From Patescibacteria group bacterium (GTDB lineage: Bacteria; Patescibacteriota; Minisyncoccia; Phycocordibacterales; UBA9973): a stretch of DNA of 64,000 nt. How positions within the stretch are numbered: position 1 is the stretch's first letter; each line of letters starts with the position of its first letter. The notes under the pieces were generated by a model that saw nothing but the letters and a program-made list of their open reading frames with translations, ran no database searches and was not told the origin of the DNA. The translations under genes were made by a program, and so were the position numbers. The DNA is taken from contig JBBTUS010000006.1 of the NCBI GenBank assembly GCA_038063635.1, positions 13,500-77,499 of the forward strand, in the 5' to 3' direction. Shown here one piece after another: positions 34,326-50,387 of the stretch.

Positions 34326-35081
34326 AAACAAGGTTCAACCTTGTTAAAATCTTGTTAAAATTCTTTTCTGAAATTTAACCAGTCACTTATAAAATCCTTA
34401 AACTCTTTACGGTATTTAAAGTATTGTGGAAAATTTTCCATATCCAAAATAGATTTTTCTTTTCTATTAAAACCACAATGATCTAAAAAGCTTGAGAACT
34501 TATAATTAAACAAAAAAATTTTTACCCTTATTAAATTTTTAATTCCCTCTTCTTTCCAATTTTTCTCTATTAATTTTACTGGGTTTAATCCAATATAAGC
34601 GAACAAATACTTTAAATAATTATCCTTTTGAACATGACTGCCTTTAAATCTACCTTGAAAGAGGGTGCCATTTCTATTGTATTTCTTATTGAAATACATA
34701 GTATAAGCAGTCATTAATTTTTGCATAAACAAACTAATTCCACCTTCACTTTTTTCATTGATTAAAATATGAAAGTGATTAGGCATCAAACAATAAGCAC
34801 CAATTTCAACCAATGTTTCGTTTCTCTCTAAATTCAAAAGTTCTGACAAGGTCTGACCTTGTCTTAAATAGTCTCCTAAATCTACTTTCAAATTACTATT
34901 GCATAAATATAAAAGAATTAAAAATCTATAATAATCACTTGTTTCATTAAAAATAATTCTTTTATCGGTACCTCTGTTATAAATATGATAAAACTCGCCG
35001 ATAGAAAATTCTATATTTCTACTCATTAATATATTTTAGCAAAGAATACACAGAAGACAAGGTTCAACCTTGTCTTCTGTG
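34326..35081 (-). mobile_element. REP-associated tyrosine transposase (RAYT) / IS200-like unit: a HUH-Y1 transposase gene flanked by palindromes with the shared core acaaggttcaaccttgt
   Basis: The left hairpin is aacaaggttcaaccttgtt (34326-34344). The right is a perfect 33-bp palindrome cacagaagacaaggttcaaccttgtcttctgtg (35049-35081). Confidence 0.7.
34355..35026 (-). CDS. HUH Y1 transposase (IS200/IS605 TnpA-like / RAYT family)
   Basis: CLMPNHFHILI is the HuH motif. YIGLNPVKL matches the catalytic Tyr context YI..NPVK. Confidence 0.7.
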   Translation of the reverse strand: MSRNIEFSIGEFYHIYNRGTDKRIIFNETSDYYRFLILLYLCNSNLKVDLGDYLRQGQTLSELLNLERNETLVEIGAYCLMPNHFHILINEKSEGGISLFMQKLMTAYTMYFNKKYNRNGTLFQGRFKGSHVQKDNYLKYLFAYIGLNPVKLIEKNWKEEGIKNLIRVKIFLFNYKFSSFLDHCGFNRKEKSILDMENFPQYFKYRKEFKDFISDWLNFRKEF

Positions 35082-36997: not shown

Positions 36998-38524
36998 TTA
37001 TATCATGGGTTCTGCTTCCTGTGAAGCTTTATTTGCCTTCAACGCTTCTTTTGAAACACCTGATTCAACCTCATCGGTTCTTTCTTCGTCTTCTTCGTAT
37101 TCCTCTTGCACTTTTCTCTTTGTTTTTCCTTCAATTATCGTCTTTTCTTCCGCGCTTCTTATAATTGTTGCTTCTTCTTCAGCGATAAGTCTAGCTGCAT
37201 CATGTTTTGATATAGAATATTTTCTGTGAGATGCAGAAATAATATCTTCTCGATAAGAAGGATGCGTAGGCGGTAGTACTCTCAAAGTTTCCGCGGAAAA
37301 TGGGTCATATGATTCTCCGTCAATCGTCATTTTTACATAAATTTCTCCAACCGCTAGATTGATTAAATCTTTTATGTCAAAAACTGGAGCAAATTCCGGT
37401 TTCATTTTAATCGCATCTTCTCCGCCAATTCTAAAAGCAATAATACTGCCACAGTTACCAAGCACTGCTTGATGTACTTTAGTAATAATCTGACCGACAT
37501 ACTGATGCGCTATAGTTAAATTTAGCGCATATTTTCTAGCTTCTGATAAAATATTTTCAAAAGTTTGCGTAACTACATTTTGAAACTCGTCTACATATAA
37601 GTAAAAATCCGTACGGTCTTTTTCCGGAATAGCCGCGCGCTCCATTCCTGCTTGTTTTATTTTAGTCAGGAATATTGAACCAAGAAAACTGGAATTTTCT
37701 TCCCCAAGGCGGCCCTTGGAAAGATTAATCAGAATTATTTTTTCTTCGTTCATTAATTTACTTATATCTATTTTATTTTGTTTCTGTCCAAAGATATTTC
37801 TAAGCAATGGGTCGGATAAAAATTGTCCGAGTTTATTTACAAGCGGAATAATAGCATCAGTATCAAATTTTTCAGACCAATCGGCGAATTCAATAGCGAA
37901 GAATCTTTTAACCATGTCGTCTGTAATATATTCAACAACTTTTTGCCTATAATTTCTGTCTGTCAGCATTGAAATCATCCCGCGCATGGTTGCATGCGGA
38001 TAATCAAGCAAGGCTAAACACGTAAAACGAAAAACGTGTTCAAGACGAGGTGTCCAATTGGCTCCGAATTGTTTTTGAAAAACCTCAATAAGACCTTGAG
38101 TAAGTTGAAACTTAAACATCGGGTCCACGTTCGCCAGTGGATTAAATGAAGCTGGATATTCAAGGTCTGTAGGGTCAATAATGCACACGTCTTCAACGCG
38201 TTCTTTTGGTATGTAGTCTAAAATAGCATCAATAACGTCTCCGTGCGGATCAATAAAACACAAGCCATGATTATATGTTATGTCTTGACGCATAAAAAGT
38301 TCAAGTAGTTTACTTTTTCCTACACCGGATTTTCCAATAACATAAAGATGTCTTCTGCGGTCAATACGCTTTATGCCGAAAATAAATTTCTTTTCTTCCA
38401 GAGCTGCCACATAATTCGTACGGCCAATAAAAGAAACCTCCTCTGGATTAACTTTTCCAAAAACAGGAAGTTCTGGCGGAGGAGGAGCATATTTAATTAT
38501 CTGCACTCGATTTGGCTTTGGCAT
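36998..38524 (-). CDS. soluble TraD/TrwB/VirD4-like P-loop ATPase (FtsK/HerA superfamily; paralog 1)
   Basis: GKSGVGKS is the Walker A, followed by IDPHGD. YLYVDEFQN is the Walker B and LTIAHQY is present. It has no N-terminal TM. It is a paralog of 42514..44763. Confidence 0.65.
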   Translation of the reverse strand: MPKPNRVQIIKYAPPPPELPVFGKVNPEEVSFIGRTNYVAALEEKKFIFGIKRIDRRRHLYVIGKSGVGKSKLLELFMRQDITYNHGLCFIDPHGDVIDAILDYIPKERVEDVCIIDPTDLEYPASFNPLANVDPMFKFQLTQGLIEVFQKQFGANWTPRLEHVFRFTCLALLDYPHATMRGMISMLTDRNYRQKVVEYITDDMVKRFFAIEFADWSEKFDTDAIIPLVNKLGQFLSDPLLRNIFGQKQNKIDISKLMNEEKIILINLSKGRLGEENSSFLGSIFLTKIKQAGMERAAIPEKDRTDFYLYVDEFQNVVTQTFENILSEARKYALNLTIAHQYVGQIITKVHQAVLGNCGSIIAFRIGGEDAIKMKPEFAPVFDIKDLINLAVGEIYVKMTIDGESYDPFSAETLRVLPPTHPSYREDIISASHRKYSISKHDAARLIAEEEATIIRSAEEKTIIEGKTKRKVQEEYEEDEERTDEVESGVSKEALKANKASQEAEPMI

Positions 38525-38603: not shown

Positions 38604-40343
38604 TTAATACACTTCCTGTTGATAACACTTTTCACAATATATTATTTCGGGTCGGTTGGGAGCGTAGGATGTTTCAAATTCTACACTGCATTTTCCTTTA
38701 TGTTCATGGTTTTCTTTATCGCACATGCAAGACCTATGCCAAAGTTTCATTGGATTTCGTTGTTTTAATCTTTGATAATGTCTGCAGTTTGGGCAAAATC
38801 TTGGTAAAGCAATATTATTTTTTCTCAAAAAATTTAATTCATCTTTTATGATGCGATAAGCTTGCGTACATAAAGTTAACTCACTGCCATTATTGGGACA
38901 AGCTATAGTTTCATTTAGAATATCTTCTTTTACATCTTGAATATGATTTGGCAAATCGTTTGATTTTAACGTAGTTTTATATTCTTTCTTTAGAGGTTCT
39001 CTAAAAAAATATCCTTCTTCCGTTATTTCTTTTTTGGTTTTTGGAAAATATTCTTGGGCAATTGTTTCATTGTAGGAGAATGGAGATAATTCGCTTGGGA
39101 AAAATTCACCATATTTATATACTCTGCCTTTACTATCTACATAAGGCATATCGTTCATATGTTTTATTATTTTAGGAACTAATTCTTCATATTCTTCTTT
39201 TGTATATTTTTTATTCAAAATACAATATTCCCCTTTTCTTATTCCAATACAACCAAATAAATTTTTCGAGTTATAACACATATAAGTATAATTGGTATCC
39301 AAACAACTGTGGGTTAATATTGAAAAATGTTGATTAAACGCTTTTATTCCCGTATCAACCCCCTCATACAACAAAGAAGCGCTAGCCCCAAAACCATAAC
39401 AATCATAATTATTTTCTGCCCAACCTCCGTGAGCTGAAAATTTTGTATCCTTGTTGTCTCCATAAATATCAAAAGATTGTTTGGTATTTTTTGAATTCAT
39501 AATATTATCTCCGGTACTATCTGAAGATTTTATTATATTGACATATTTATTAGGAAATTTTAAAACAAAGTCAGTATATTTATTTTTAAAATCAGATAAA
39601 ATTTTATAATTTCCAAAATCTAGATTCTTTTTTATTTTTAAATACTCTTCTTTGGAATATTGTTTGTTAAAAACACAGTATTTTTTGTTATGTAAATTAA
39701 TACAACCTATGCAATCTTGGCAATTCACGCAATTTTTCAAAAAATAACAGTTTATAGATTGACCTGAATTATAAGAAAAATGAGTTTGAAACAAAGAATC
39801 AGAAAGTATGTCTTCATAACATAATTCGGATTTTACAATAGAATATGTGTCAACGCAGTTTTTTAAACTAGATGCGCCTTGAGAATAAAGAACGTCTTCA
39901 TTTAAATAGGAAGCATAAACAAGATAACAATTTTTACAATCAGCATTATGATTGCCATATGGAAAATTTACACAATTAGTATTGCCAACATTGGCTAAAG
40001 GCACTTTTAATAATAATTCTTTATATTGTTCGAAGAATGGCTTACTAAAATCATAATCTTTTCCATAAGAAGCAGCGTCCCAATCATCTCCCCACCAAAT
40101 ATCATGATCATAAACTTTTCCCTTAAATTCAGGGTTAAACATCGCTATTATTGATTTATTTGTTTTGTCACAAGTTCTTTTAAAGAGAGCTCTTTCATTT
40201 CTCCAAGTTAGCCTTCTTATCATCCTGCATTCCGGACAAAAAGTCGGAGGCGGAACTTTTATTTTCTCATAGAAATTAAAATCTTCCGGCTCTATTATAA
40301 AGTCTTTTTGGCAATTTTGACATTGTTGAATTTTTTTTTGCAT
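38604..40343 (-). CDS. large cysteine-rich zinc-ribbon-containing protein (family not recognised; paralog 1 of 3)
   Basis: At 579 aa it has more than 40 Cys. The N-terminus is CQNCQKDFIIEPEDFNFYEKIKVPPPTFCPECR. The C-terminus LPRFCPNCRHYQRLKQRNPMKLWHRSCMC...YCEKCYQQEVY is related to it. Internal repeats are YC[VI][FL]NK[QK]Y[ST]KEEY. Confidence 0.6.
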   Translation of the reverse strand: MQKKIQQCQNCQKDFIIEPEDFNFYEKIKVPPPTFCPECRMIRRLTWRNERALFKRTCDKTNKSIIAMFNPEFKGKVYDHDIWWGDDWDAASYGKDYDFSKPFFEQYKELLLKVPLANVGNTNCVNFPYGNHNADCKNCYLVYASYLNEDVLYSQGASSLKNCVDTYSIVKSELCYEDILSDSLFQTHFSYNSGQSINCYFLKNCVNCQDCIGCINLHNKKYCVFNKQYSKEEYLKIKKNLDFGNYKILSDFKNKYTDFVLKFPNKYVNIIKSSDSTGDNIMNSKNTKQSFDIYGDNKDTKFSAHGGWAENNYDCYGFGASASLLYEGVDTGIKAFNQHFSILTHSCLDTNYTYMCYNSKNLFGCIGIRKGEYCILNKKYTKEEYEELVPKIIKHMNDMPYVDSKGRVYKYGEFFPSELSPFSYNETIAQEYFPKTKKEITEEGYFFREPLKKEYKTTLKSNDLPNHIQDVKEDILNETIACPNNGSELTLCTQAYRIIKDELNFLRKNNIALPRFCPNCRHYQRLKQRNPMKLWHRSCMCDKENHEHKGKCSVEFETSYAPNRPEIIYCEKCYQQEVY

Positions 40344-40448: not shown

Positions 40449-42224
40449 TCATAGAAATTCAGCTTGATAACATTTTTCGCAATATACAATTTCTTTTCGG
40501 TTATTATTAATCGCTGTTTCAAATTCATTTTGGCATGGATTTTCTGCGTGAAAATGCCCAATGGTATTTTTATATTCTTTATTTTCTGATTCTACACCAT
40601 TACACATGCATTTTCTATGCCAGAGTTTTGGCGGATTAACCATTTTTAACCGTTCATAATACCGGCAATTAGGACATAAATGGGGCAAAGCTAGCCTCAT
40701 AGATTGATAAAATTTTAACTCGTCTGGTAAAATACGAAAAGCTGTCGTGCATTGTTCATTGCAATTACCTTTATGTTCACATTCAATAACTTCATTTAAT
40801 ATGGACTCGGTAACATCGTTAATATGATCAGGTAAATTTTCTGGTTGAATGGTTATTTTATAATCTCTTGTAATTGAATCACGCCAATAAAATCCTTGTT
40901 TTAACGCCTCTTCTTTTGTAAGAGGAAAATATTTATTTGCCCATGTTTCATTATATGCCCATAAAGAAAGTTCAGACGGATAAAATTCTCCATACTTATA
41001 GATTCTTCCCTTTTTATCAACATAAGGCATATCGTTCATATGTTTTTTAATTTTAGGAATTAATTTTTCGTATTCTTCTTTTGTATATTGTTTGTTTAAA
41101 ATACAGTATTTTTTTTGCTTTAGCCTAACACAGCCAAAAAGATTAGCGCCACCATAAATATTCTCGGAATATTCAACATCTATAACATTATTGCTCCCAC
41201 GACAAAAAAAACTTCGCTGTGATTGAGTGCTTCCATTTACTTCGTATAAAAGCTCTGAGGTATCCCCTCCAAAAGTAATATCATAACTATCTTTTAATAA
41301 AAGCCCGCAAGTAAAAATATTTTTGCAATTTTCTACACCTTCAAGAGTAATAAAACAGTTTTTACAATTTTTAGTATTTTGAAGACCATCACCGCTTACA
41401 TTATATGAGTTTATGACAATAGAAAATCGTCTTGGTGTCTTATAATAAAGTTCCATAAATTTTTCTTTCGCTTTTTGTATAACTTTATAGCTTCCTAAAT
41501 CCCATTTAGCTATTTGTTTCTTATATTCTTCTTTTGTATATTGAACATTAAAAATATTGTGTTTTTGATTTCTTAAATTTATACAGCCAAAGCAATTTGA
41601 ACATCCTATACAATAAAAAAGGAAAGATGAGTCAAGACACTCATCCGAAAAATAAGTAAATTTTGTATTATAGACTCCAGTTGAGTTTATGGTATTGTAT
41701 ACATGATCAGCATTCCAAATAACATCAGAATCCATAGAATCGCGAGAAAAAAGTGGAGCTTGACAATAATAAGAATTAATAGATTGAAAACCGCCAAAAA
41801 CAAAAGTGCAGTTTTTGCAACGAACATTTCCATGGCAATATTTATTATTAGTACAATTTCTTGAATTTGTCCCCTGTGACGGAACAATTTTTTGTAGTTC
41901 ATATAATTGTTGGAAAAATGGCTTATTAAAATCATAATCTCTACCATATAGAGTTCCATCCCAATCATCTTTCCACCAACACGGAGAACAATAAACGACA
42001 AAAGGAGTTTCAGGAGCAAATAAACTTACAATATTTTCTCCACATTTATCACACTTATCTTTATATAAAGCACGTTCTTCACGATAAGCTAAACGTCGAA
42101 TTAGTCTGCACTCCGGACAAAAAGTCGGTGGCGGAACCTTTATTTTTTCATAAAATAAAAAATCGTCTGGCTCGATTATAAAGTCTTTTTGGCAATTCTG
42201 ACAGTTTCTAGTTTCATTTTTCAT
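40449..42224 (-). CDS. large cysteine-rich zinc-ribbon-containing protein (paralog 2 of 3)
   Basis: At 591 aa its N-terminal 70 aa are about 70% identical to paralog 1. The C-terminus is LPHLCPNCRYYERLKMVNPPKLWHRKCMC...YCEKCYQAEFL. Confidence 0.6.
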   Translation of the reverse strand: MKNETRNCQNCQKDFIIEPDDFLFYEKIKVPPPTFCPECRLIRRLAYREERALYKDKCDKCGENIVSLFAPETPFVVYCSPCWWKDDWDGTLYGRDYDFNKPFFQQLYELQKIVPSQGTNSRNCTNNKYCHGNVRCKNCTFVFGGFQSINSYYCQAPLFSRDSMDSDVIWNADHVYNTINSTGVYNTKFTYFSDECLDSSFLFYCIGCSNCFGCINLRNQKHNIFNVQYTKEEYKKQIAKWDLGSYKVIQKAKEKFMELYYKTPRRFSIVINSYNVSGDGLQNTKNCKNCFITLEGVENCKNIFTCGLLLKDSYDITFGGDTSELLYEVNGSTQSQRSFFCRGSNNVIDVEYSENIYGGANLFGCVRLKQKKYCILNKQYTKEEYEKLIPKIKKHMNDMPYVDKKGRIYKYGEFYPSELSLWAYNETWANKYFPLTKEEALKQGFYWRDSITRDYKITIQPENLPDHINDVTESILNEVIECEHKGNCNEQCTTAFRILPDELKFYQSMRLALPHLCPNCRYYERLKMVNPPKLWHRKCMCNGVESENKEYKNTIGHFHAENPCQNEFETAINNNRKEIVYCEKCYQAEFL

Positions 42225-42513: not shown

Positions 42514-44763
42514 TTACTCTAGTATTTTTTTTAATACATCTTCCGGCACTTCACGAATTGTTCCCGAAGAAGAAATAGGGTTTTGTGTTTTTGGGTTTTC
42601 TTCTTTTTTGATAGGTATTTCTTCTTTCTTTTTTATCTCTTCCTTTACTTCTTTGGAAACTTCAGGCGATTCAGCTCCGTTAGATTTAGCTGAAATGAAA
42701 TTTTTTAATTTATCCATATCTTCCCTGCTTGCAGATCTATCTTTTGACGGAGAACTGGATGTTGGTTGCGTATTTTTTAATTCATTTAGAGAGATTGAAG
42801 GCGTTTCTTTTTCTATAGGTTTTTCTTCTTTATTTGTTTGAGAAGATGAAAAAACCTTATTTTCAGAAAGAGTTTTGTTTAAAATTTCTCTTAAAGCTAT
42901 ATTTTCTTTGGGTTTTTCCCCGCCTGCCTGCCCGACACGTTGACGCGAGTCATGCGGGCGGGCATTAGCTGTGCTAAAAGCATTGCGGTCAGGTTTTTGC
43001 GTTTGATTTACAAATTTATTTTTAATTGGTGCATATTGCTGTTTATCTCTTGGTTGTGGATTTGAAAATGAAGCTTTTTTATCAAAAACTCTTTTAATCG
43101 CCGAAAATATTCCCGGTCTTCTTATTGCTTCGTCCGGATGTTGGATATGTATATCAACTCTTTCTGGATATCTTTCTTCTCGGGCTCTTTCTATATTATT
43201 GGTATAAACTTCTTTTTTTTCAAATTCTATTCCTAAATCAGATAATGGCTTATAAAACTTTACTTCATCTTGTCTTACTTGGCTCATTGACCCTTTTATA
43301 GGCTTTAATTCTCCAGATTTCATTTTTGCTATGCAATCCCTGCAATACACTGGACGTCCTTTTTCTGGCTTAAAAGGCACAGTTGTTTCTTTTTTACAAA
43401 TAGAACATTCAGCGGGAAATTTTTCTACCTCACTAGCTTCATTTTCATTTCCAAGAGACATTCCACTCCAATTGTTTATTTCTCGTTCTACAACTTCTTT
43501 TGATCTGCAATATAAATCACGAGAAGATTTTATAACTTCTTCCTCTGTTTCTTTATTGCCTTTTGCCATTGGAGGTATTGTTCTAGCTGAAAAAGGTCTT
43601 GAAGTTACACCGTCTATCATTAATTTTAAATATATTTTATAGTTTGGAAGATTAACAATATCTTGAGGAGTAAATTCCGGGTCAAATTCTTTTTCTAAAA
43701 ATTCCGCATCATCGGCGCCGCAACGAAAAACTATCATCGTGCCAACGTTGCCAAAAACAGCATCACGAACTGCAGAACTTTTATCCGAAACAAGCTGGGC
43801 GGTATATTGATGAGCAACCGTCAGATTTAATCTGTATTTTCTGGCTTCAGATAAAATACCGGCAAAAGCGTCCGTCACAAAATTTTGAAATTCATCCACA
43901 TAAAGATAAAAATCTTTTCTTTCATCTTCTGGAATACGCACACGTTCCATCGCCGCAAGTTGAATTTTAGTAATAATCATACCACCCAAAAGCGAAGAAT
44001 TGTCTTCACCGATGCGCCCTTTGGAAACATTTACAAGAAAAATTTTTCCCTCATTCATTATGTCAAAAATGTTTATTGTGCTTTTTGACTGCCCTACAAC
44101 ATTTCGAATAATGGAAGTAGAAAGAAATTGACCTACTTTATTTTGGATAGGAGCAATAGCTTCATTTCTAAATTTGTCTTGCCAAGCCTCATATTCGTGA
44201 ATCCAAAAAGCTTTAATAACTGGGTCTTTTAGATTTGAAATTATTTTTTGGCGATAATCTTTGTCCACTAGCATTCTAGGTATGCCAAGAAGCGTAGTCC
44301 CAGGAGTATCTAGAAGAGCTAAAATAGCATTATTTAAAATGTATTCCATTCGAGCGCTCCAAGCATTGGCCCAAATTTTGGTAAATATTCCCATAAGACC
44401 TGAAGCGACCAAATGCTTGTATTTAGGGTCAATAAGTTCTAGAACATTAAAACCAACATGATATTCTGTGTCTGCCGGATTAAAATAAACAACATCTTTC
44501 ATGCGATTTGGAGGAATTGAAGAAAGAATTGCTTCAACATTTTCTCCGTGCGGGTCAACCATACATACACCATCGCCATTTTTGATGTTCTGAATAATCA
44601 TATTAAACATGAGCACAGATTTACCTGTTCCTGATTTTCCAAGAATATAAACATGCTGGCGCCTATCTTTGCGCTTTATGCCAAAAAGCTGATTTTTATC
44701 TCTATAAGTAGAATACCCAATATATGTAATATCTTTATTTAAAGGCAAATCTAAGGCGTTCAT
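42514..44763 (-). CDS. soluble TraD/TrwB/VirD4-like P-loop ATPase (paralog 2) with a 300-aa low-complexity C-terminal extension containing a CxxC...CxxC zinc ribbon
   Basis: GKSGTGKS, VDPHGE, YLYVDEFQN and LTVAHQY are present. The tail is Lys/Glu-rich and carries the family-2 repeat insertion. Confidence 0.65.
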   Translation of the reverse strand: MNALDLPLNKDITYIGYSTYRDKNQLFGIKRKDRRQHVYILGKSGTGKSVLMFNMIIQNIKNGDGVCMVDPHGENVEAILSSIPPNRMKDVVYFNPADTEYHVGFNVLELIDPKYKHLVASGLMGIFTKIWANAWSARMEYILNNAILALLDTPGTTLLGIPRMLVDKDYRQKIISNLKDPVIKAFWIHEYEAWQDKFRNEAIAPIQNKVGQFLSTSIIRNVVGQSKSTINIFDIMNEGKIFLVNVSKGRIGEDNSSLLGGMIITKIQLAAMERVRIPEDERKDFYLYVDEFQNFVTDAFAGILSEARKYRLNLTVAHQYTAQLVSDKSSAVRDAVFGNVGTMIVFRCGADDAEFLEKEFDPEFTPQDIVNLPNYKIYLKLMIDGVTSRPFSARTIPPMAKGNKETEEEVIKSSRDLYCRSKEVVEREINNWSGMSLGNENEASEVEKFPAECSICKKETTVPFKPEKGRPVYCRDCIAKMKSGELKPIKGSMSQVRQDEVKFYKPLSDLGIEFEKKEVYTNNIERAREERYPERVDIHIQHPDEAIRRPGIFSAIKRVFDKKASFSNPQPRDKQQYAPIKNKFVNQTQKPDRNAFSTANARPHDSRQRVGQAGGEKPKENIALREILNKTLSENKVFSSSQTNKEEKPIEKETPSISLNELKNTQPTSSSPSKDRSASREDMDKLKNFISAKSNGAESPEVSKEVKEEIKKKEEIPIKKEENPKTQNPISSSGTIREVPEDVLKKILE
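42913..42997. repeat. GC-rich palindromic element, family 2 (copy 1), in-frame inside the C-terminal tail of ATPase-2
   Basis: It is about 88% identical over about 85 nt to 50265-50349. The termini CCTGCCCG...CGGGCAGG form an inverted repeat. It encodes NAFSTANARPHDSRQRVGQAGGEK. Confidence 0.75.
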
Positions 44764-44851
44764 ATGTTAAATTATAACACTCTATAATAGATTTTAGCAA
44801 AAAATTTTAAGGGTTTTTATGTTTTTGGACCTGCTCCATAGTGAGTTTGCT

Positions 44852-46792
44852 TTATTTTTTAGGAGCTTCCTCTTCCGGCTTTTCTTTTGCCTCGTCTGTA
44901 GACGGACCTTCTTTATATTCTGCATCGCGAACTTTAGAATCTTTTTCTTCAGAAGTTGCTTGTTCTGATTTTGCTGAAGAACTGGTTTCATCTACTTTTG
45001 CCATAGCTTCGCCAATTTTAGACATCTCACTGGAAAGTTCTTCGGTGGCTTTTTTAATTGCTTCAGAATCCGTTCCGTCTTTTACTTCTTTCAAAGAAGT
45101 TATTTTAGCATTTACCCCATCCTTAATATCCGATGGGATTTTTGCTTCGTTATCTTTCAATGCTTTTTCCGCAGTGTAAATAATCATTTCCGCGGTATTT
45201 TTTATATCAACAATTTCTTTTTTCTTTTTATCTTCCTCTGCATGAAGTTCAGCATCGGCCTGCATTTTCTTAATATCTTCTTCTTTTAATCCAGAACTTG
45301 CTTCAATTTTAATTGATTGAGCTTTTCCGGAAGCTTTATCTTTTGCCGTAACATTTAAAATTCCATTTGCATCAACATCAAAAGTAACTTCAACTTGTGG
45401 AATACCGCGAGGTGCTGGCGGAATTCCATCTAATATAAATCTTCCTAAACTCTTGTTATCGGAAACCATTGGACGTTCTCCTTGCACAATATGAATTTCA
45501 ACAGAAGTTTGATTGTCGGCTGCAGTTGAAAAAATTTGAGATTTAGAAGATGGAATAGTTGTGTTTCTTTCAATTAATTTTGTAGAAACTCCTCCAAGCG
45601 TTTCAATACCGAGTGAAAGAGGTATAACGTCCAAAAGCAACACATCACGAACTTCACCGGCCAAAACTCCAGCTTGAACCGCAGCTCCTAAAGCCACAAC
45701 TTCATCGGGATTTATAGACATATTCGGTGTTTTTCCAAAAAGATTTTTCACCGCATCAACAATCGCCGGCATTCTTGTTTGTCCGCCAACCATTATAATT
45801 TCGTTTATTTCATTCATTTTAAACGGCGATGCTTCAAGAGCTTTTTTTGTTATTTCAATTGAACGGTCAATATATTCTTTTGTTAATGATTCCAGAGTTG
45901 CTCGAGACATTTTTAAAAGCAAATGTTTTGGTCCGGAAGAATCAGAAGTGATAAATGGAACATTTATTTCCGTTTCCATTGTTGTAGAAAGTTCATGCTT
46001 TGCTTTTTCCGCAGCTTCTTTTAATCTCTGATGAGCCAGCGGGTCTTTTCTGACATCAATGCCAGATTCTTTTTTATATTCCTCGGCTATCCAAGTAATA
46101 ATTTTTCTATCAATATCGCCTCCACCCATATGTGAATCTCCGTCAGTTGATTTTACTTCAATAATATCATCTCCAATTTCTAAAACTGAAACATCAAAAG
46201 TTCCGCCGCCAAAATCATAGACAACTATTTTTTCATTTTTCTTTTTATCAAATCCATAAGCCAGAGCTGCGGCTGTAGGCTCGTTTATAATACGTTTCAC
46301 GTCAAGTCCGGCAATCTGACCGGCATCTTTGGTTGCTTTTCTTTGAGCATCATTAAAATAAGCGGGAACAGTAATAACTGCTTCTGTTATTTTCTCGCCT
46401 AATTTTGTTTCAACATCTGTTTTAATTTTTTGCAAAATCATCGCTGAAATTTCTTCCGGACGATAAAATTTATCCAGCATTTTAACTTTTACGCCGCCAC
46501 TTTCACCAGCTTCAATTTTAAATGACGCAGTAACTTTATCTTTTTGCACTTCCGGGTCGTCGTATCTATGACCCATATAGCGTTTTATTTCTGAAATTGT
46601 ATTTTCCGGATTAGTAACTGCTTGCCTCTTTGAGAGAAGTCCGGTAATACGGTCACCATTTTTTGTAGTGGCTACTACAGAAGGCGTGGTGCGGTTGCCT
46701 TCTACGTTTTCAATAATTTTCGGTGCGCCTCCTTCAATAATTGCTACAGCCGAATTTGTTGTACCCAAATCTATACCTATTATTTTTGACAT
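44852..46792 (-). CDS. dnaK: chaperone DnaK (Hsp70)
   Basis: [23 protein letters not shown] and the rest of the Hsp70 signature set are present. Confidence 0.95.
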
Positions 46793-46809
46793 AATATTTT
46801 ATTTAATTT

Positions 46810-46839
46810 CCGCCTGAGGCGGATCAGCCCTTTGGCTGA
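46810..46839 (-). promoter_or_regulatory. two short GC hairpins in the dnaK 5' leader (ccgcctgaggcgg and tcagccctttggctga); no CIRCE consensus was seen
   Basis: Inverted repeats lie 18-47 nt upstream of the dnaK start codon. Confidence 0.35.
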
Positions 46840-46953
46840 AATTATTAATAATCTTATTTATACAACCATTATATACGAAACAAATATTTTTAGCAAGTTT
46901 TTAGTGACCGCGAAATACTTGTCAAAAGACAGTATATATTATAATATATAGCT

Positions 46954-47475
46954 ATGTCAAGAAAAATGGATTATTCTAATAAGATATTAAAGATTTTGGC
47001 CGAAAAACCAGTTGTTTCAGTTGAATCAATAAAAAGTGAGGATCCTAAGAAAAATTATGCTTTTGCTCGTTCAATAAAAAATTTAGTTGAATCAGGATGC
47101 ATTGAAATGCTTCAGTCTGATAATCAAACTTATTTAAAAATAACTAAAAAAGGTAAAGGCAAATTAAATTGTATAAAACTAGAGGGTGAAGAAGCGCTTG
47201 TGTCTAATACTTGGGATGGATTTTGGAGAATTATAATTTTAGATATTCCCGAAAACAGAAAACCGGAACGCGAAGCATTGCGTTATCTTTTAAAGAAAGC
47301 GAATTTTATTTGCGTAAAAAATACCGTATGGATTTCTCCTTATCCTTACGAAAATCTTTTTACAAACATTAAAAAAGATTTAGGTTTGGGAACTGAACTA
47401 ATGATTATAGTGACAAACAAGCTGGATTCAGAAACAAATTCAGCATTTTTAAAAAATGTAAATAAAATTCAGTAA
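46954..47475 (+). CDS. putative transcriptional regulator (small PaaX-like: wHTH plus a PaaX_C-like domain), divergent from dnaK
   Basis: DGFWRIIILDIPENRKPEREALRYLLKKANFICVKNTVWISPYP resembles the PaaX C-terminal domain pattern. A TTGTCA-N17-TATATTATAAT promoter is upstream. Confidence 0.4.
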   Translation: MSRKMDYSNKILKILAEKPVVSVESIKSEDPKKNYAFARSIKNLVESGCIEMLQSDNQTYLKITKKGKGKLNCIKLEGEEALVSNTWDGFWRIIILDIPENRKPEREALRYLLKKANFICVKNTVWISPYPYENLFTNIKKDLGLGTELMIIVTNKLDSETNSAFLKNVNKIQ

Positions 47476-49160
47476 ATTTCTTTATTGTAACAACTTTCGC
47501 AATAAATTATTTCTTTTCGGTCTGGAGAATAACTTGTTTCAAATTCATTAGAACAACCTTCTTTCATGCATTTTCGGTGCCAAAGTTTGCGAGGCAGACG
47601 AATTGCAAAACGTTTTTTATATCTGCATTCTGGACAAAAATGCGGTAATGGAATATTTTCTTTTTTATAAAATGCTAATTCGTCTTTTGTTATATTATAA
47701 TTTTTTTTACATTTATCACACGCTAAAACAGCCATTAAAATTTCATCATTAATATCTTTAATATCATCTGGGATATTTTCTAGTTTAACGGTTTCTTTTC
47801 CAAAAATTCCCGGAATCTTATCTTCCCATTTCCACCCGCGAGAAAGAATAGTTTCTTTCTCTTCCGGCATATAATAATTTCCCTGAGTTTCGTTATAACA
47901 AACAGGAGAAATAGATGGTGGAAAAAATTCTCCATACTCCCCTGTTTTCTTCATATGTTCTATTATTTTTTCTTTCAATTCCAAATATTCTTCTTTTGAA
48001 TATTTTTTATTAAAAATCATATACTCCCCTTTTTTAATTGAAATACACCCAAAAAGGTTTTGACAATTCTGACAAGAGTCCGAATATTCTATATCTCTAT
48101 TGTCATAACAAAGATGACAAAATTTACTGTTATATAAACCTTTGCATCCGTGAATTTCATACGACAATTCCGTACCCCAACCCACATGATACAAATCCAT
48201 TGAAGATTTTAAGGAAACAGATGCGTAAATATTTTTTGTATCTTCAAGCATTTCCACATCAAAACTATTTATTGAATTCTTACTATTAAATATCATATTG
48301 CCGGTACAATTAATATTGCGTTCGCTTATCACGTAGCGATGAATAGAATCCTTAATCATTAAATCAAAAAATTCTTGTTTTAACTTCTCACGAACATTAT
48401 AAGAACCTAAATTATATTCTTTTATTTTTTCTAAATAAGCCTCACGAGAATATTGTTTATTTTTAAAAACATATTTTTTATTGCGCAAATTAGACGATAA
48501 AAAACAATCATTGCAGTTACGACAATCGTAACAATAATAGCAATTTACGCAATTTTCCAATAAAAAACCAAATTGGCATTGATATGATTTTCTTGAATCA
48601 ATACATTCATAAAGTTTTTCTCCGCTGTCATATATATAACTGCAATCCATGCAGTTTCTAGATTTCATTATCCAAGTTGAATAAAGTACATCTTCAGTAT
48701 TGAAACAGCTAAAAGATAAATAAGCATTTTTGTCATCTCCGGAATGATTGGCATAATCCGAATTAATGCTATTTTTACTCAAAAGGGCTACACGAGGAAC
48801 TTCAAGCTGTAATTCATGATATTGTTCAAAAAATGACCTGGAAAAATCAAAATCACGTCCATAAACAGCAGGGTCCCAGTTATCTCCCCACCAGCATTTC
48901 AAACAATAAACTTTTAATAATTTATTTGGAGAATAAACGGTAACAATGCTTTTATTGCACAAGTCGCAGTCTCGCCTATATAAAGTTCTTTCGTTTCGCC
49001 AAGCATAACGACGTTGTTGACGACAATTCGGACACCACAAAGGCGGTGGAACTTTTATTTTTTCATAAAAATCAAAATCTTCAGGTTCTATTGTAAAATC
49101 TTTTTTGCAATTCTGGCAATTTTTATTTTTCTGTTGTTGGCTCATTATATTCAAAGACAT
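47469..49160 (-). CDS. large cysteine-rich zinc-ribbon-containing protein (paralog 3 of 3), translationally coupled to grpE
   Basis: At 563 aa its N-terminus is CQNCKKDFTIEPEDFDFYEKIKVPPPLWCPNCR and its C-terminus is LPHFCPECRYKKRFAIRLPRKLWHRKCM...YCESCYNKEIY. Its start overlaps the grpE 3' end by 38 nt. Confidence 0.6.
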   Translation of the reverse strand: MSLNIMSQQQKNKNCQNCKKDFTIEPEDFDFYEKIKVPPPLWCPNCRQQRRYAWRNERTLYRRDCDLCNKSIVTVYSPNKLLKVYCLKCWWGDNWDPAVYGRDFDFSRSFFEQYHELQLEVPRVALLSKNSINSDYANHSGDDKNAYLSFSCFNTEDVLYSTWIMKSRNCMDCSYIYDSGEKLYECIDSRKSYQCQFGFLLENCVNCYYCYDCRNCNDCFLSSNLRNKKYVFKNKQYSREAYLEKIKEYNLGSYNVREKLKQEFFDLMIKDSIHRYVISERNINCTGNMIFNSKNSINSFDVEMLEDTKNIYASVSLKSSMDLYHVGWGTELSYEIHGCKGLYNSKFCHLCYDNRDIEYSDSCQNCQNLFGCISIKKGEYMIFNKKYSKEEYLELKEKIIEHMKKTGEYGEFFPPSISPVCYNETQGNYYMPEEKETILSRGWKWEDKIPGIFGKETVKLENIPDDIKDINDEILMAVLACDKCKKNYNITKDELAFYKKENIPLPHFCPECRYKKRFAIRLPRKLWHRKCMKEGCSNEFETSYSPDRKEIIYCESCYNKEIY

Positions 49161-49731
49161 TTACTTGAGCAACACGTATCACGTGATTATCAAGTTTATA
49201 TCCTTTTTGAACAACTTCACAAACTTTATGGTCTTCTTCTTTTTTATCAGTCGGTATTGCCTTTATTGATTGGTGAATATTAGGGTCAAAATTCTCACCT
49301 GCCTCGCCTATCGGTTTTACTCCATATTCTTCAAAGATTGTATTTATTTGAGTATAAATATGTTCAACTCCCCTTCTCCAACTTTCATCTACTTTTTCCC
49401 AAGCTTCTTTGTTTGAAAACGCCATATTAAAACTGTCTAAAACACTCAAAAAACTAAAAAGAATACGCTCGCGCACTGCTTCTGAAAAATTTATTTTTCT
49501 ATCTTCTTCTTGTTTTTTATAATTGGTAAATTCTGCTCGCTCTTTTTGCCAGCCAGTCAAATATTCTTCTTTCTCAGTCTTGCACGCTTTTAAATCAACC
49601 CTCAATTTTTTAAGGGTTTTCTTTAAATCTTCCTCTCCGTTTTCATTAAATTCAAATTCAAGAACTTCAGATTCGTTTTTTTCTTCCGTTGGTTCCGAAA
49701 CTTCAGATTTTTCTTCTTCATTATCTGCCAT
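49123..49731 (-). CDS. grpE: nucleotide exchange factor GrpE
   Basis: A coiled coil is followed by the GrpE motif RAEFTNYKKQ and the C-terminal beta domain. Confidence 0.85.
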   Translation of the reverse strand: MADNEEEKSEVSEPTEEKNESEVLEFEFNENGEEDLKKTLKKLRVDLKACKTEKEEYLTGWQKERAEFTNYKKQEEDRKINFSEAVRERILFSFLSVLDSFNMAFSNKEAWEKVDESWRRGVEHIYTQINTIFEEYGVKPIGEAGENFDPNIHQSIKAIPTDKKEEDHKVCEVVQKGYKLDNHVIRVAQVNVFEYNEPTTEK

Positions 49732-49880
49732 AAATATATATTATCATAAATCTAATAAAAATAATGTTTTTAAGGGGTTTGCCGAGTGACGACGAGGCAA
49801 TTTCAGGATTTTTTAAGCTTCAAAAAATCCGTACCGACAAAAACATTATTCTTGATTTTTATTTTTAAAAACACAACTAA

Positions 49881-50387
49881 CTAACGTTTGCTCCATTGTG
49901 GGGCTTTTCTTGCCTTTTTAAGTCCGAATTTTCTTCGCTCTTTAGCCCTTCCATCACGCTTTAAAAATCCTAATGTTTTTAATTTTGCGCGAAGTTCGCC
50001 ATCTGATTCCACTAAAGCTCTAGTAAGCCCATGGCGTACTGCTTCAGATTGAGAGTGAATTCCACCTCCAGAAACTCTTGCTTCAATGCTCCATTTTGAC
50101 CCAGGCTTACCCTTAGTAATCGGGTCTGTAATCAAGCGACGCTGTTCTTCTGTTTTAAAATAATCTTTTGCATCTTTTCCATTTACAACAAAACTTGTTT
50201 TAGCAGATTCATAAATACGAACTCTGGCCGTAGAAGTTTTTCTTCTGCCTATTGCTTCAATATATTTTTCCCCGCCTGCCTGCCCGACACGCTGACGCGA
50301 GTCATATGGGCGAGCATCAGCTATGCTGAAAGCATTGCGGGCAGGTTTTGTTGTTGTTTTGTTGTCATCTATCATAATATTATTCAT
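49881..50387 (-). CDS. rpsI: 30S ribosomal protein S9 with a 40-aa N-terminal extension
   Basis: The core from YIEAIGRRKTSTARV to the C-terminal KKARKAPQWSKR is canonical S9. The extension contains the family-2 repeat. Confidence 0.9.
   Translation of the reverse strand: MNNIMIDDNKTTTKPARNAFSIADARPYDSRQRVGQAGGEKYIEAIGRRKTSTARVRIYESAKTSFVVNGKDAKDYFKTEEQRRLITDPITKGKPGSKWSIEARVSGGGIHSQSEAVRHGLTRALVESDGELRAKLKTLGFLKRDGRAKERRKFGLKKARKAPQWSKR
50265..50349. repeat. GC-rich palindromic element, family 2 (copy 2), in-frame at the 5' end of rpsI
   Basis: It encodes NAFSIADARPYDSRQRVGQAGGEK, the same peptide frame as copy 1. No in-frame start codon exists between the element and the conserved S9 core. 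Confidence 0.75.

Follow-up and report, generated by a model that had tools for sequence, protein, structure and literature searches.

Why should two unrelated genes of one AT-rich bacterial genome carry almost the same GC-rich segment, read in the same frame? This question is raised by a stretch of 64,000 nucleotides (nt) from a Patescibacteria group bacterium (assembly GCA_038063635.1, contig JBBTUS010000006.1, positions 13,500 to 77,499), here called the window, in which the segment occurs once in the gene for a TraD/VirD4-like ATPase (copy A) and once in rpsI, the gene for ribosomal protein S9 (copy B). The two copies had been noticed in an original prediction made from the letters of the DNA, which took them for selfish palindromes that survive inside genes in a single permissive frame. 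The analysis presented here indicates that they very probably belong to a family of mobile DNA elements that are short, GC-rich, non-autonomous and able to form hairpins, and that live in the AT-rich genomes of Paceibacteria/Nomurabacteria (Patescibacteria).

The repeat itself, described originally as two nearly identical blocks of about 85 nt, is real. Positions 42913-42997 and 50265-50349 align without gaps and with 10 differences per ~85 nt, five of them synonymous and five non-synonymous. A 22-mer from the shared block occurs exactly twice in the window, and none of 100 dinucleotide-preserving shuffles gives a single match to it, even at three or fewer mismatches. The blocks were rightly called GC-rich in an AT-rich genome, with a GC content of 64% in the element core versus 33% in the window. 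Both copies lie within open reading frames (ORFs) on the coding minus strand and, as had been claimed, are translated in a common frame into the peptide KP[D/A]RNAFS[T/I]A[N/D]ARP[H/Y]DSRQRVGQAGGEK. What had to be revised is the extent of the unit. The similarity covers all of the ~85 nt, but only 75 nt are mobile, and the other ~10 nt are a common A-rich target, CAAAA/GAAAAA, where the slash here and below marks the point of insertion. In sense orientation the true termini are CCTGCCCG at the 5' end and CAGGCGGG at the 3' end. The former had been placed correctly at one end of the element, but its proposed partner, CGGGCAGG, belongs to an internal inverted unit and not to the 3' end. The element has no protein-coding content of its own.

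Whether the segment could be an ancestral part of its hosts had been raised as a check, and the closest orthologs of both S9 and the ATPase carry empty sites. About 110 of the 120 best S9 homologs, including the closest at 87-88% identity, are 132-138 amino acids (aa) long with the empty site MEQKTTK/EKYIEAIGRRK. At the DNA level, the S9 ortholog at locus L080 reads ACGACAAAA/GAAAAATAT, and the window reads ACAACAAAA, then the 75 nt, then GAAAAATAT. The copy in S9 is therefore in the N-terminus, as stated originally, but it is a 25-aa insertion in a pre-existing tail of ~15 aa and not a novel extension of 40 aa. In the ATPase, the placement of the other copy in the low-complexity C-terminal tail of a TraD-like protein with TrwB/TraG-type domains is confirmed. 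Two ATPase orthologs, P0123 and P0124, which like the others are named 'CxxC-x17-CxxC domain-containing protein' in their source records, have the empty site IQK/EKPKENIALR where the window reads TQK, 25 inserted residues and EKPKENIALR. A third ortholog, P0121, is 89% identical, has an empty site and is 26 aa shorter. Mini versions of 11-13 aa are found at other positions in the tails of the orthologs P0149, P0172 and P0210. A diversity-generating retroelement, in which one copy would be the template repeat and the other the variable repeat, was rejected since the mismatches are not adenine-specific and copies are present in many genes and genomes.

Further copies, which the original prediction had proposed to look for, were sought with the exact 20-mer CCGCCTGCCTGCCCGACACG as a probe, in the GTDB set of one genome per species and then in metagenome contigs. 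The GTDB scan gave 28 matches. In 23 of these, all in GC-rich genomes, the similarity ends at the 20-mer; the remaining five are in low-GC Patescibacteria and show similarity over the full element with unrelated flanks. The five carriers are two contigs of Ca. Nomurabacteria RIFCSPHIGHO2_01_FULL_36_23, Nomurabacteria metagenome-assembled genomes (MAGs) from the samples Ike-150m and Lac Pavin, and one Paceibacterota groundwater MAG. Eight more unique copies come from groundwater and lake metagenome contigs. Together with the two in the window, these 13 additional copies make 15 unique full copies in at least five MAGs and several metagenomes, with unrelated flanks and, where they lie in genes, nearly all in one frame. 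Mean identity per alignment column is 93%, and pairs of copies are 86% identical across the 54 columns that lie outside the search pattern. The carrier assemblies are independent (NCBI, JGI, ENA and Logan), derive from several sites and contain copies with individual substitutions.

With this evidence, the possibility that the two blocks are an ancestral domain, a chance similarity or an artefact of assembly or contamination becomes almost negligible, in view of the shuffle test, the independent assemblies, the empty sites and the lack of any widespread domain in peptide searches. Two such searches were made. A word search with the concatenated peptide among 5.8 billion proteins gave no candidate, a result limited by the word index, as later searches found carriers; a profile search with the 30-aa peptide serves as an estimate of rarity and is a poor census. 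Neither an E-value scan of Rfam around copy A nor a gathering-threshold scan of the whole window matched the element, and a known ribozyme, riboswitch or small RNA is rejected on these grounds. An origin from transfer RNA (tRNA), as in short interspersed elements, is rejected as well, because ARAGORN finds only tRNA-Gln (1558-1630) in the window. Two scans of viral contigs yielded no copy of the element, and a phage vector is rejected accordingly. In full-text literature no description of such an element in Patescibacteria or the Candidate Phyla Radiation (CPR) was found.

Twelve of the 15 copies are inside long ORFs, all in sense orientation, and 11 of them share one frame with the consensus PARNA.S.ADARPHDS.QRVGQAGG. 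The copy at L041 is read in the +1 frame, and its variant CACAGC abolishes the stop codon of that frame. At L013, pyrG ends within the copy, from which it takes its final codons and its stop, and this copy contains three stops in the usual frame; the copies at L052 and L064 are intergenic. The one at L064 lies 2 nt past the stop codon of an ortholog of a PaaX-like regulator. As the window is 92% coding, insertion without bias would be expected to place this proportion of copies in genes, and genes are not avoided. Copies in genes often sit inside conserved domains. Two hosts are histidine kinases, with the insert before HATPase_c in one and inside HATPase_c in the other, and two are RsmE methyltransferases, with the insert between the PUA and methyltransferase domains in one and inside the methyltransferase domain in the other. 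A Mur ligase carries the insert within its middle domain. The remaining hosts are a membrane protein, in its tail, three proteins without Pfam matches, and the S9 protein and ATPase of the window.

Translation of the element can be followed most closely in S9. In-frame ATG, GTG or TTG codons ahead of the conserved core are present at residues 1 and 5 only, which bears out the earlier statement that no canonical start lies between the element and the core; since both starts are upstream of the element, the production of S9 requires, as far as the sequence can show, that the element be translated. The first of these codons, an ATG, overlaps the stop codon of rplM as TAATG, and the public annotation P0001 (an NCBI protein of a Patescibacteria group MAG) begins at the second methionine (MIDDNK..., at 50375 versus 50387). 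An AlphaFold2 model of the window S9 built with 24 homologs has a predicted local distance difference test (pLDDT) score of ~90 in the core and below 50 at residues 1-33, which fits a tolerated disordered addition that would leave the core intact. The junction-spanning peptides predicted for a translated insert are TTTKPARNAFSIADARPYDSR, TTTKPARNAFSIADAR and RVGQAGGEKYIEAIGR.

The host proteins would be unchanged if the element were instead excised from the messenger RNA (mRNA) or bypassed by the ribosome. GC-rich hairpin inserts are bypassed in one known system, the mitochondrial genes of Magnusiomyces (PMC8811140), which resembles the present one in that the inserts interrupt protein-coding genes of an AT-rich genome, and the consensus sense RNA of the element is predicted to fold stably at about -32 kcal/mol. 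Bypass or splicing imposes no constraint on frame, however, and all 12 full copies in ORFs are free of stops in the host frame although four of the six phases carry them. Length variants in ORFs are all multiples of three (75, 72, 39, 36 and 18 nt, and an addition of 33 nt), the non-coding copy at L013 has gained its three stops in that same frame, and a decayed copy at L084 has kept the frame with its GC content and structure largely gone. Whereas the Magnusiomyces clusters are skipped, the conserved frame, the lack of stops and the 3n lengths argue that the present element is translated, and we consider its removal or bypass very improbable.

Comparison of filled and empty sites at four positions gives a unit of 75 nt, or 72 nt at L067, and no duplicated flank. 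In the orthologous kinases L007 and L067, each gene is filled where the other is empty, and the insert measures 75 nt in L007 and 72 nt, with 3 nt of internal deletions, in L067. The RsmE genes at L014 and L015 likewise carry their copies at different positions. Across 18 independent insertions, the target has a purine at position -1 in 18 of 18 cases, G or A at +1 in 16 and A at +2 in 15. The fraction of A over positions -4 to +4 is 0.62 compared with a background of 0.36, a value reached in none of 2000 resamplings. This target is asymmetric with respect to genes. In the genes of the window, AAA/GAA occurs 225 times on the sense strand (157 between codons) versus 68 times antisense (8 between codons), and for AAAA/GAAA in phase 0 the counts are 34 versus 1.

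Every one of the 14 DNA-ascertained copies associated with genes is sense to its host. The consensus element has exactly one open phase in each orientation, PARNAFSIADARPHDSLQRVGQAGG in sense with a mean hydropathy of -0.64 and PACLPDTLKRVMRAGISYAESIAGR in antisense with a mean hydropathy of 0.02, so stop codons alone do not explain this bias. Replication direction was rejected as its cause, because the full and mini copies at L063 lie on opposite strands 1.2 kb apart, each sense to its own gene, and three hosts are on the locally minority strand. The sense and phase-0 bias is best attributed to polar insertion in the asymmetric Lys/Glu-codon target and subsequent loss of out-of-frame insertions. 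This model predicts 82-97% of survivors in sense orientation, together with a phase-0 bias and a preference for tails and loops rich in Lys and Glu.

A different cause of the same regularities would be selection for a functional peptide or RNA module, such as a recognition tag or an mRNA-stabilising or regulatory structure. The uniform sense orientation, which extends even to the hosts on opposite strands at L063, and a conservation far exceeding that of the host genes favor such a module. In the orthologous hosts L061 and L082, for example, where the element is one codon apart, the elements are 84% identical, but the host genes are 52% identical in DNA and 44% in protein. The two copies are nevertheless not nearest relatives, with 80% mutual identity versus 96% and 93% to copies elsewhere, a pattern that points to recurrent insertion or gene conversion and not to slow evolution in place. 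Private variants are shared by copies of one genome, as would result from spread inside each genome: the copies L007 and L027 reach 94% identity, and CGCGTCA is present in both copies of the window. At codon positions 1, 2 and 3 of the copies in ORFs, the minor-allele frequencies are 5%, 11% and 10%. Without a third-position excess, and with GC-rich codons in a 33% GC genome, it is the DNA that is conserved and not the peptide; nucleotide identity thus goes beyond what the peptide explains, a point on which the original prediction had made its case depend. The old copy L084, in a gene for an S1-like protein, has undergone many G/C-to-A/T changes, from which it follows that the well-preserved GC-rich copies are probably young. 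The closest orthologs of every host do without the element, which is therefore dispensable; the codon positions bear no signature of selection on the peptide, copies decay towards A/T and shrink, the hosts and positions share nothing but the A-rich target, and target asymmetry together with frame selection accounts for the orientation bias. A functional module is therefore improbable.

The element also has an internal architecture. At L063 (4150-4188), a 39-nt mini copy is inserted in frame in MurE, with the full copy in the neighboring Mur ligase. Compared with such minis, the 75-nt form consists of a 39-nt unit plus a second block of 36 nt placed just before the 3' terminus. Read on the opposite strand, this inner block has the termini of the whole element, CCTGCCCG...CGGGCGGG, with the end CG/TGGGCG (here the slash separates alternative letters). 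At L047 (1894-2005), a full copy carries an extra inverted unit of 33 nt, nested directly behind its 5' terminus. From these arrangements we infer a composite origin of the 75-nt form. Of the four units tested, three are predicted to fold as hairpins, with z-scores of -1.9 to -3.1, and the 33-nt unit of L047 is not (z = -0.2). The whole element is predicted to fold as a Y (as DNA, z = -2.4 in sense and -3.4 in antisense), and its termini match as reverse complements at 6 of 8 positions, or over 6 bp with one G-T pair allowed.

Shorter forms accumulate at the S9 junction. Other lineages have inserts at the identical junction, of 75 nt with a different interior (L077), 39 nt (L075), 36 nt (L078) and 18 nt (L079 and L081), with termini common to all and lengths that are all multiples of three. 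The 18-nt relics are essentially CCTGCCCG-NN-CAGGCGGG. The junction is either a hotspot of insertion or the place of one old insertion with repeated in-frame shrinkage and precise loss.

For the movement of such an element, one candidate to consider is a Y1, or RAYT-like (REP-associated tyrosine transposase), HUH transposase encoded in the same window. The window genes examined include no further transposase-like gene, and no longer element with the same ends was found in the window or in ~226 kb of related loci of low GC content. The element could be a passenger of this transposase, which would recognize its hairpins, and be moved as single-stranded DNA by peel-and-paste in the manner of a REPIN (a pair of inverted repetitive extragenic palindromes, REPs), which would be compatible with the mobile-element interpretation. 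The Y1 gene is present in both the window and the close relative L080 (11262-11933, 51% identical), the element is rich in hairpins and has two inverted units as in a REPIN, and single-strand peel-and-paste would suit the missing target-site duplication and the apparently precise empty sites. Against this stands the fact that RAYT genes are normally flanked by their cognate REPs (PMC3337134), but those of the window and L080 are flanked by different hairpins unrelated to the element. In both genomes the flanking hairpins are of the CAAGG...CCTTG type and have no sequence in common with the 75-nt element; in the window they occur only at the Y1 locus, and in L080 they are TTGAGCAAGGC...GCCTTGCTCAA palindromes. 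The NCBIfam score of 44.7 bits falls short of the cut-off of 80, a strict left-flank target of 4-5 nt as in IS200/IS605 is missing, and REPs and REPINs are extragenic whereas the element copies are intragenic. A passenger of this Y1 enzyme is thus rather unlikely, and the enzyme is not supported as a demonstrated partner. Equally unlikely is the broader idea that the element is a coding-sequence-colonizing counterpart of REPINs, moved in trans by a Y1 HUH transposase or another host enzyme with polar AAAA/GAAA recognition and scar-free excision. If true, it would explain the missing duplication, the clean empty sites beside relic-bearing S9 orthologs and the nested inverted units, and Patescibacteria would be the first lineage where the movement of an in-frame element of this kind can be worked out.

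Among known systems, the original prediction had likened the copies to Rickettsia palindromic elements (RPEs). RPEs are short, non-autonomous hairpin repeats of a small AT-rich genome, present like the element in coding as well as non-coding DNA, many copies of which are fused in frame into unrelated housekeeping genes with one permissive frame and a conserved peptide, and for which no transposase is known (PMC10969869, PMC1166351); they are identified by hidden Markov models built from known RPE sequences (PMC1166351). The likeness in behavior, namely in-frame insertion in unrelated ORFs with a peptide conserved in one frame, is upheld by the 13 further copies in unrelated genes, but the comparison holds by analogy only. 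The present element measures 75 nt, compared with ~100-150 bp for RPEs, has 64% GC and resides in a Patescibacteria MAG and not in Rickettsiales. It differs further in its A-rich Lys/Glu-codon target without duplication and in its composite of nested inverted units with relics of 39, 36 and 18 nt. Homology with RPEs is unlikely given the GC content and the host phylum; the element is a new sequence family, an RPE analogue and not a member of an RPE family.

Other short repeats resemble the element in part. The GC clusters of yeast mitochondria (GC42 and the var1 insertions) include in-frame inserts in a ribosomal protein that give rise to protein size polymorphism, merge and shuffle with one another, and concentrate substitutions in their loops (PMC8811140, PMC4478555). 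They are likewise GC-rich palindromic mini-elements of a compact AT-rich genome with in-frame copies in a ribosomal-protein gene, and their merger and shuffling (PMC4478555) parallel the composite structure, a resemblance that is functional only. In contrast to the present element, which has a bacterial host, is mostly in genes and inserts in AAAA/GAAA without a flanking repeat, the clusters are organellar, mostly intergenic, ~30-50 nt long and associated with AG or TAG target repeats. REPs and REPINs, in turn, lie outside genes, and a RAYT gene has its cognate REPs on its flanks (PMC3337134, PMC3733652). The element shares with them the short GC-rich hairpins, the two inverted hairpin units and a RAYT-like Y1 gene in the same genome, but 12-13 of its 15 copies are within or overlap genes. 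From classical miniature inverted-repeat transposable elements it differs in lacking a target-site duplication, and no related autonomous insertion sequence with the same ends was found in the ~226 kb of loci or the window, the only transposase found having other ends; its termini CCTGCCCG and CAGGCGGG pair at 6 of 8 positions.

Taken together, a coherent course of events can be proposed. The element would insert in a polar manner, in fixed orientation relative to an asymmetric target of the AAAA/GAAA type and without target duplication. As this target within genes is mostly a Lys/Glu codon junction on the sense strand, surviving copies would be sense and in phase 0 and would add 25 hydrophilic residues, predicted to be disordered (PARNAFSIADARPHDSxQRVGQAGG), to surface loops and tails. 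The genome of the window would have received two independent insertions, one in S9 and one in the tail of the ATPase, and the inserted copies would then be translated within the host protein. Decay would proceed by A/T-biased substitution and by internal deletions of 3n nucleotides to relics of 39, 36 and 18 nt that keep both termini. The 75-nt form would itself be a composite, in which a 39-nt hairpin unit bears a second, inverted unit of 36 nt.

Several points weigh against this account. No transposase or other mobilizing function is linked to the element; the argument for transposition comes from the distribution of copies and that for translation of the insert from the conservation of frame. 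The census depends on an exact 20-mer, which limits what it can say about the number of copies in each genome and about the diversity of the family. The family is rare in public data, as the 30-aa peptide profile matches only two cluster representatives among 1.84 billion proteins. The palindromic character claimed originally is plausible and moderately supported, with fold z-scores of -1.5 to -3.4 and compensatory changes in only 2 of 28 pairs; covariation is weak because the copies, at 86-93% identity, are too similar. Finally, the recurrent inserts at the same S9 site could also stem from a single old insertion followed by repeated precise loss. The positions of the features discussed are collected in Table 1.

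Table 1. Positions in the window of the two element copies, their targets and host genes, and the Y1 transposase locus
Feature	Position	Strand	Description and basis
Copy A, 75-nt element	42919-42993	-	PDRNAFSTANARPHDSRQRVGQAGG; in frame in the low-complexity C-terminal tail of the TraD/VirD4-like ATPase; from alignment with copy B and the empty sites of P0123, P0124 and P0121
Copy A target, upstream half	42994-42998	-	sense CAAAA
Copy A target, downstream half	42913-42918	-	sense GAAAAA; from copy alignment, empty sites of ATPase orthologs and the target profile
Inner 36-nt inverted unit of copy A	42927-42962	+	from comparison with mini copies, CCTGCCCG on the plus strand and hairpin folds
Copy B, 75-nt element	50271-50345	-	PARNAFSIADARPYDSRQRVGQAGG; 25 codons between Lys-14 and Glu-40 of S9; from alignment with copy A and ortholog empty sites (protein, and L080 DNA)
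Copy B target, upstream half	50346-50350	-	sense CAAAA
Copy B target, downstream half	50265-50270	-	sense GAAAAA; motif as at copy A, unbroken in the L080 empty site; profile of 18 insertion targets
Inner 36-nt unit of copy B	50279-50314	+	inverted, nested just before the outer 3' terminus; from mini copies, CCTGCCCG positions on the plus strand and hairpin folds
TraD/VirD4-like ATPase, 749 aa, host of copy A	42514-44763	-	Pfam TrwB_AAD_bind, T4SS-DNA_transf, TraG-D_C; treble-clef zinc finger
rpsI (S9), host of copy B	49881-50387	-	Pfam Ribosomal_S9 at residues 47-168, E=1e-36
Y1_Tnp / RAYT-like HUH transposase gene, 223 aa	34355-35026	-	NCBIfam REP_Tyr_transpos, E=1e-11
Hairpins flanking the Y1 gene	35058-35072, 34329-34343		CAAGGTTGAACCTTG type (CAAGG...CCTTG)
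Third, similar hairpin	34847-34861		CAAGGTCAGACCTTG; inside the Y1 gene

The neighborhood of the ATPase gene has features of its own. A second gene for a TraD/VirD4-like coupling-protein ATPase (36998-38524, minus strand) lies 4 kb away; of the two, it lacks the treble-clef zinc finger (CxxC-x17-CxxC) and the long tail of low complexity that distinguish the host of copy A. Three paralogous Cys-rich proteins of 563-591 aa (38604-40343, 40449-42224 and 47469-49160, all on the minus strand) are interleaved with the two TraD-like ATPases, DnaK and GrpE. They share an N-terminal motif, CQNCxKDFxIEPEDFxFYEKIKVPPPxxCPxCR, and a C-terminal motif, CPNCR...CEKCY; the protein encoded at 40449-42224, the only one tested, has no Pfam match. 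The gene for a PaaX-like regulator with a Cas2-like middle domain (46954-47475, plus strand) runs in the opposite direction and separates dnaK from a Cys-rich gene. A scan of the window for GC islands revealed no second element family. A cluster of islands with 50-58% GC at 1749-2700 overlaps an ORF for a matrixin-like protein (Peptidase_M10) adjoining the tRNA-Gln gene; it may be foreign DNA and has no relation to the 75-nt element.

Until now, most documented cases of selfish hairpin DNA colonizing essential genes in frame have come from Rickettsia and mitochondria, and the family described here would place the same process in the CPR. That the hosts are once again tiny, AT-rich and gene-dense genomes suggests a general consequence of near-absent non-coding DNA. 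For genome annotation, the family accounts for odd GC-rich insertions and size polymorphisms in Patescibacteria proteins such as S9, RsmE, Mur ligases and kinases, inserts that could otherwise be misread as novel domains or assembly errors. The copies also constitute a natural experiment on where proteins tolerate 25 added residues. With clean pairs of filled and empty sites, an asymmetric target and a decay series from 75 nt through 39 or 36 nt to 18 nt, these elements offer a good system for the study of how such an element moves and dies.

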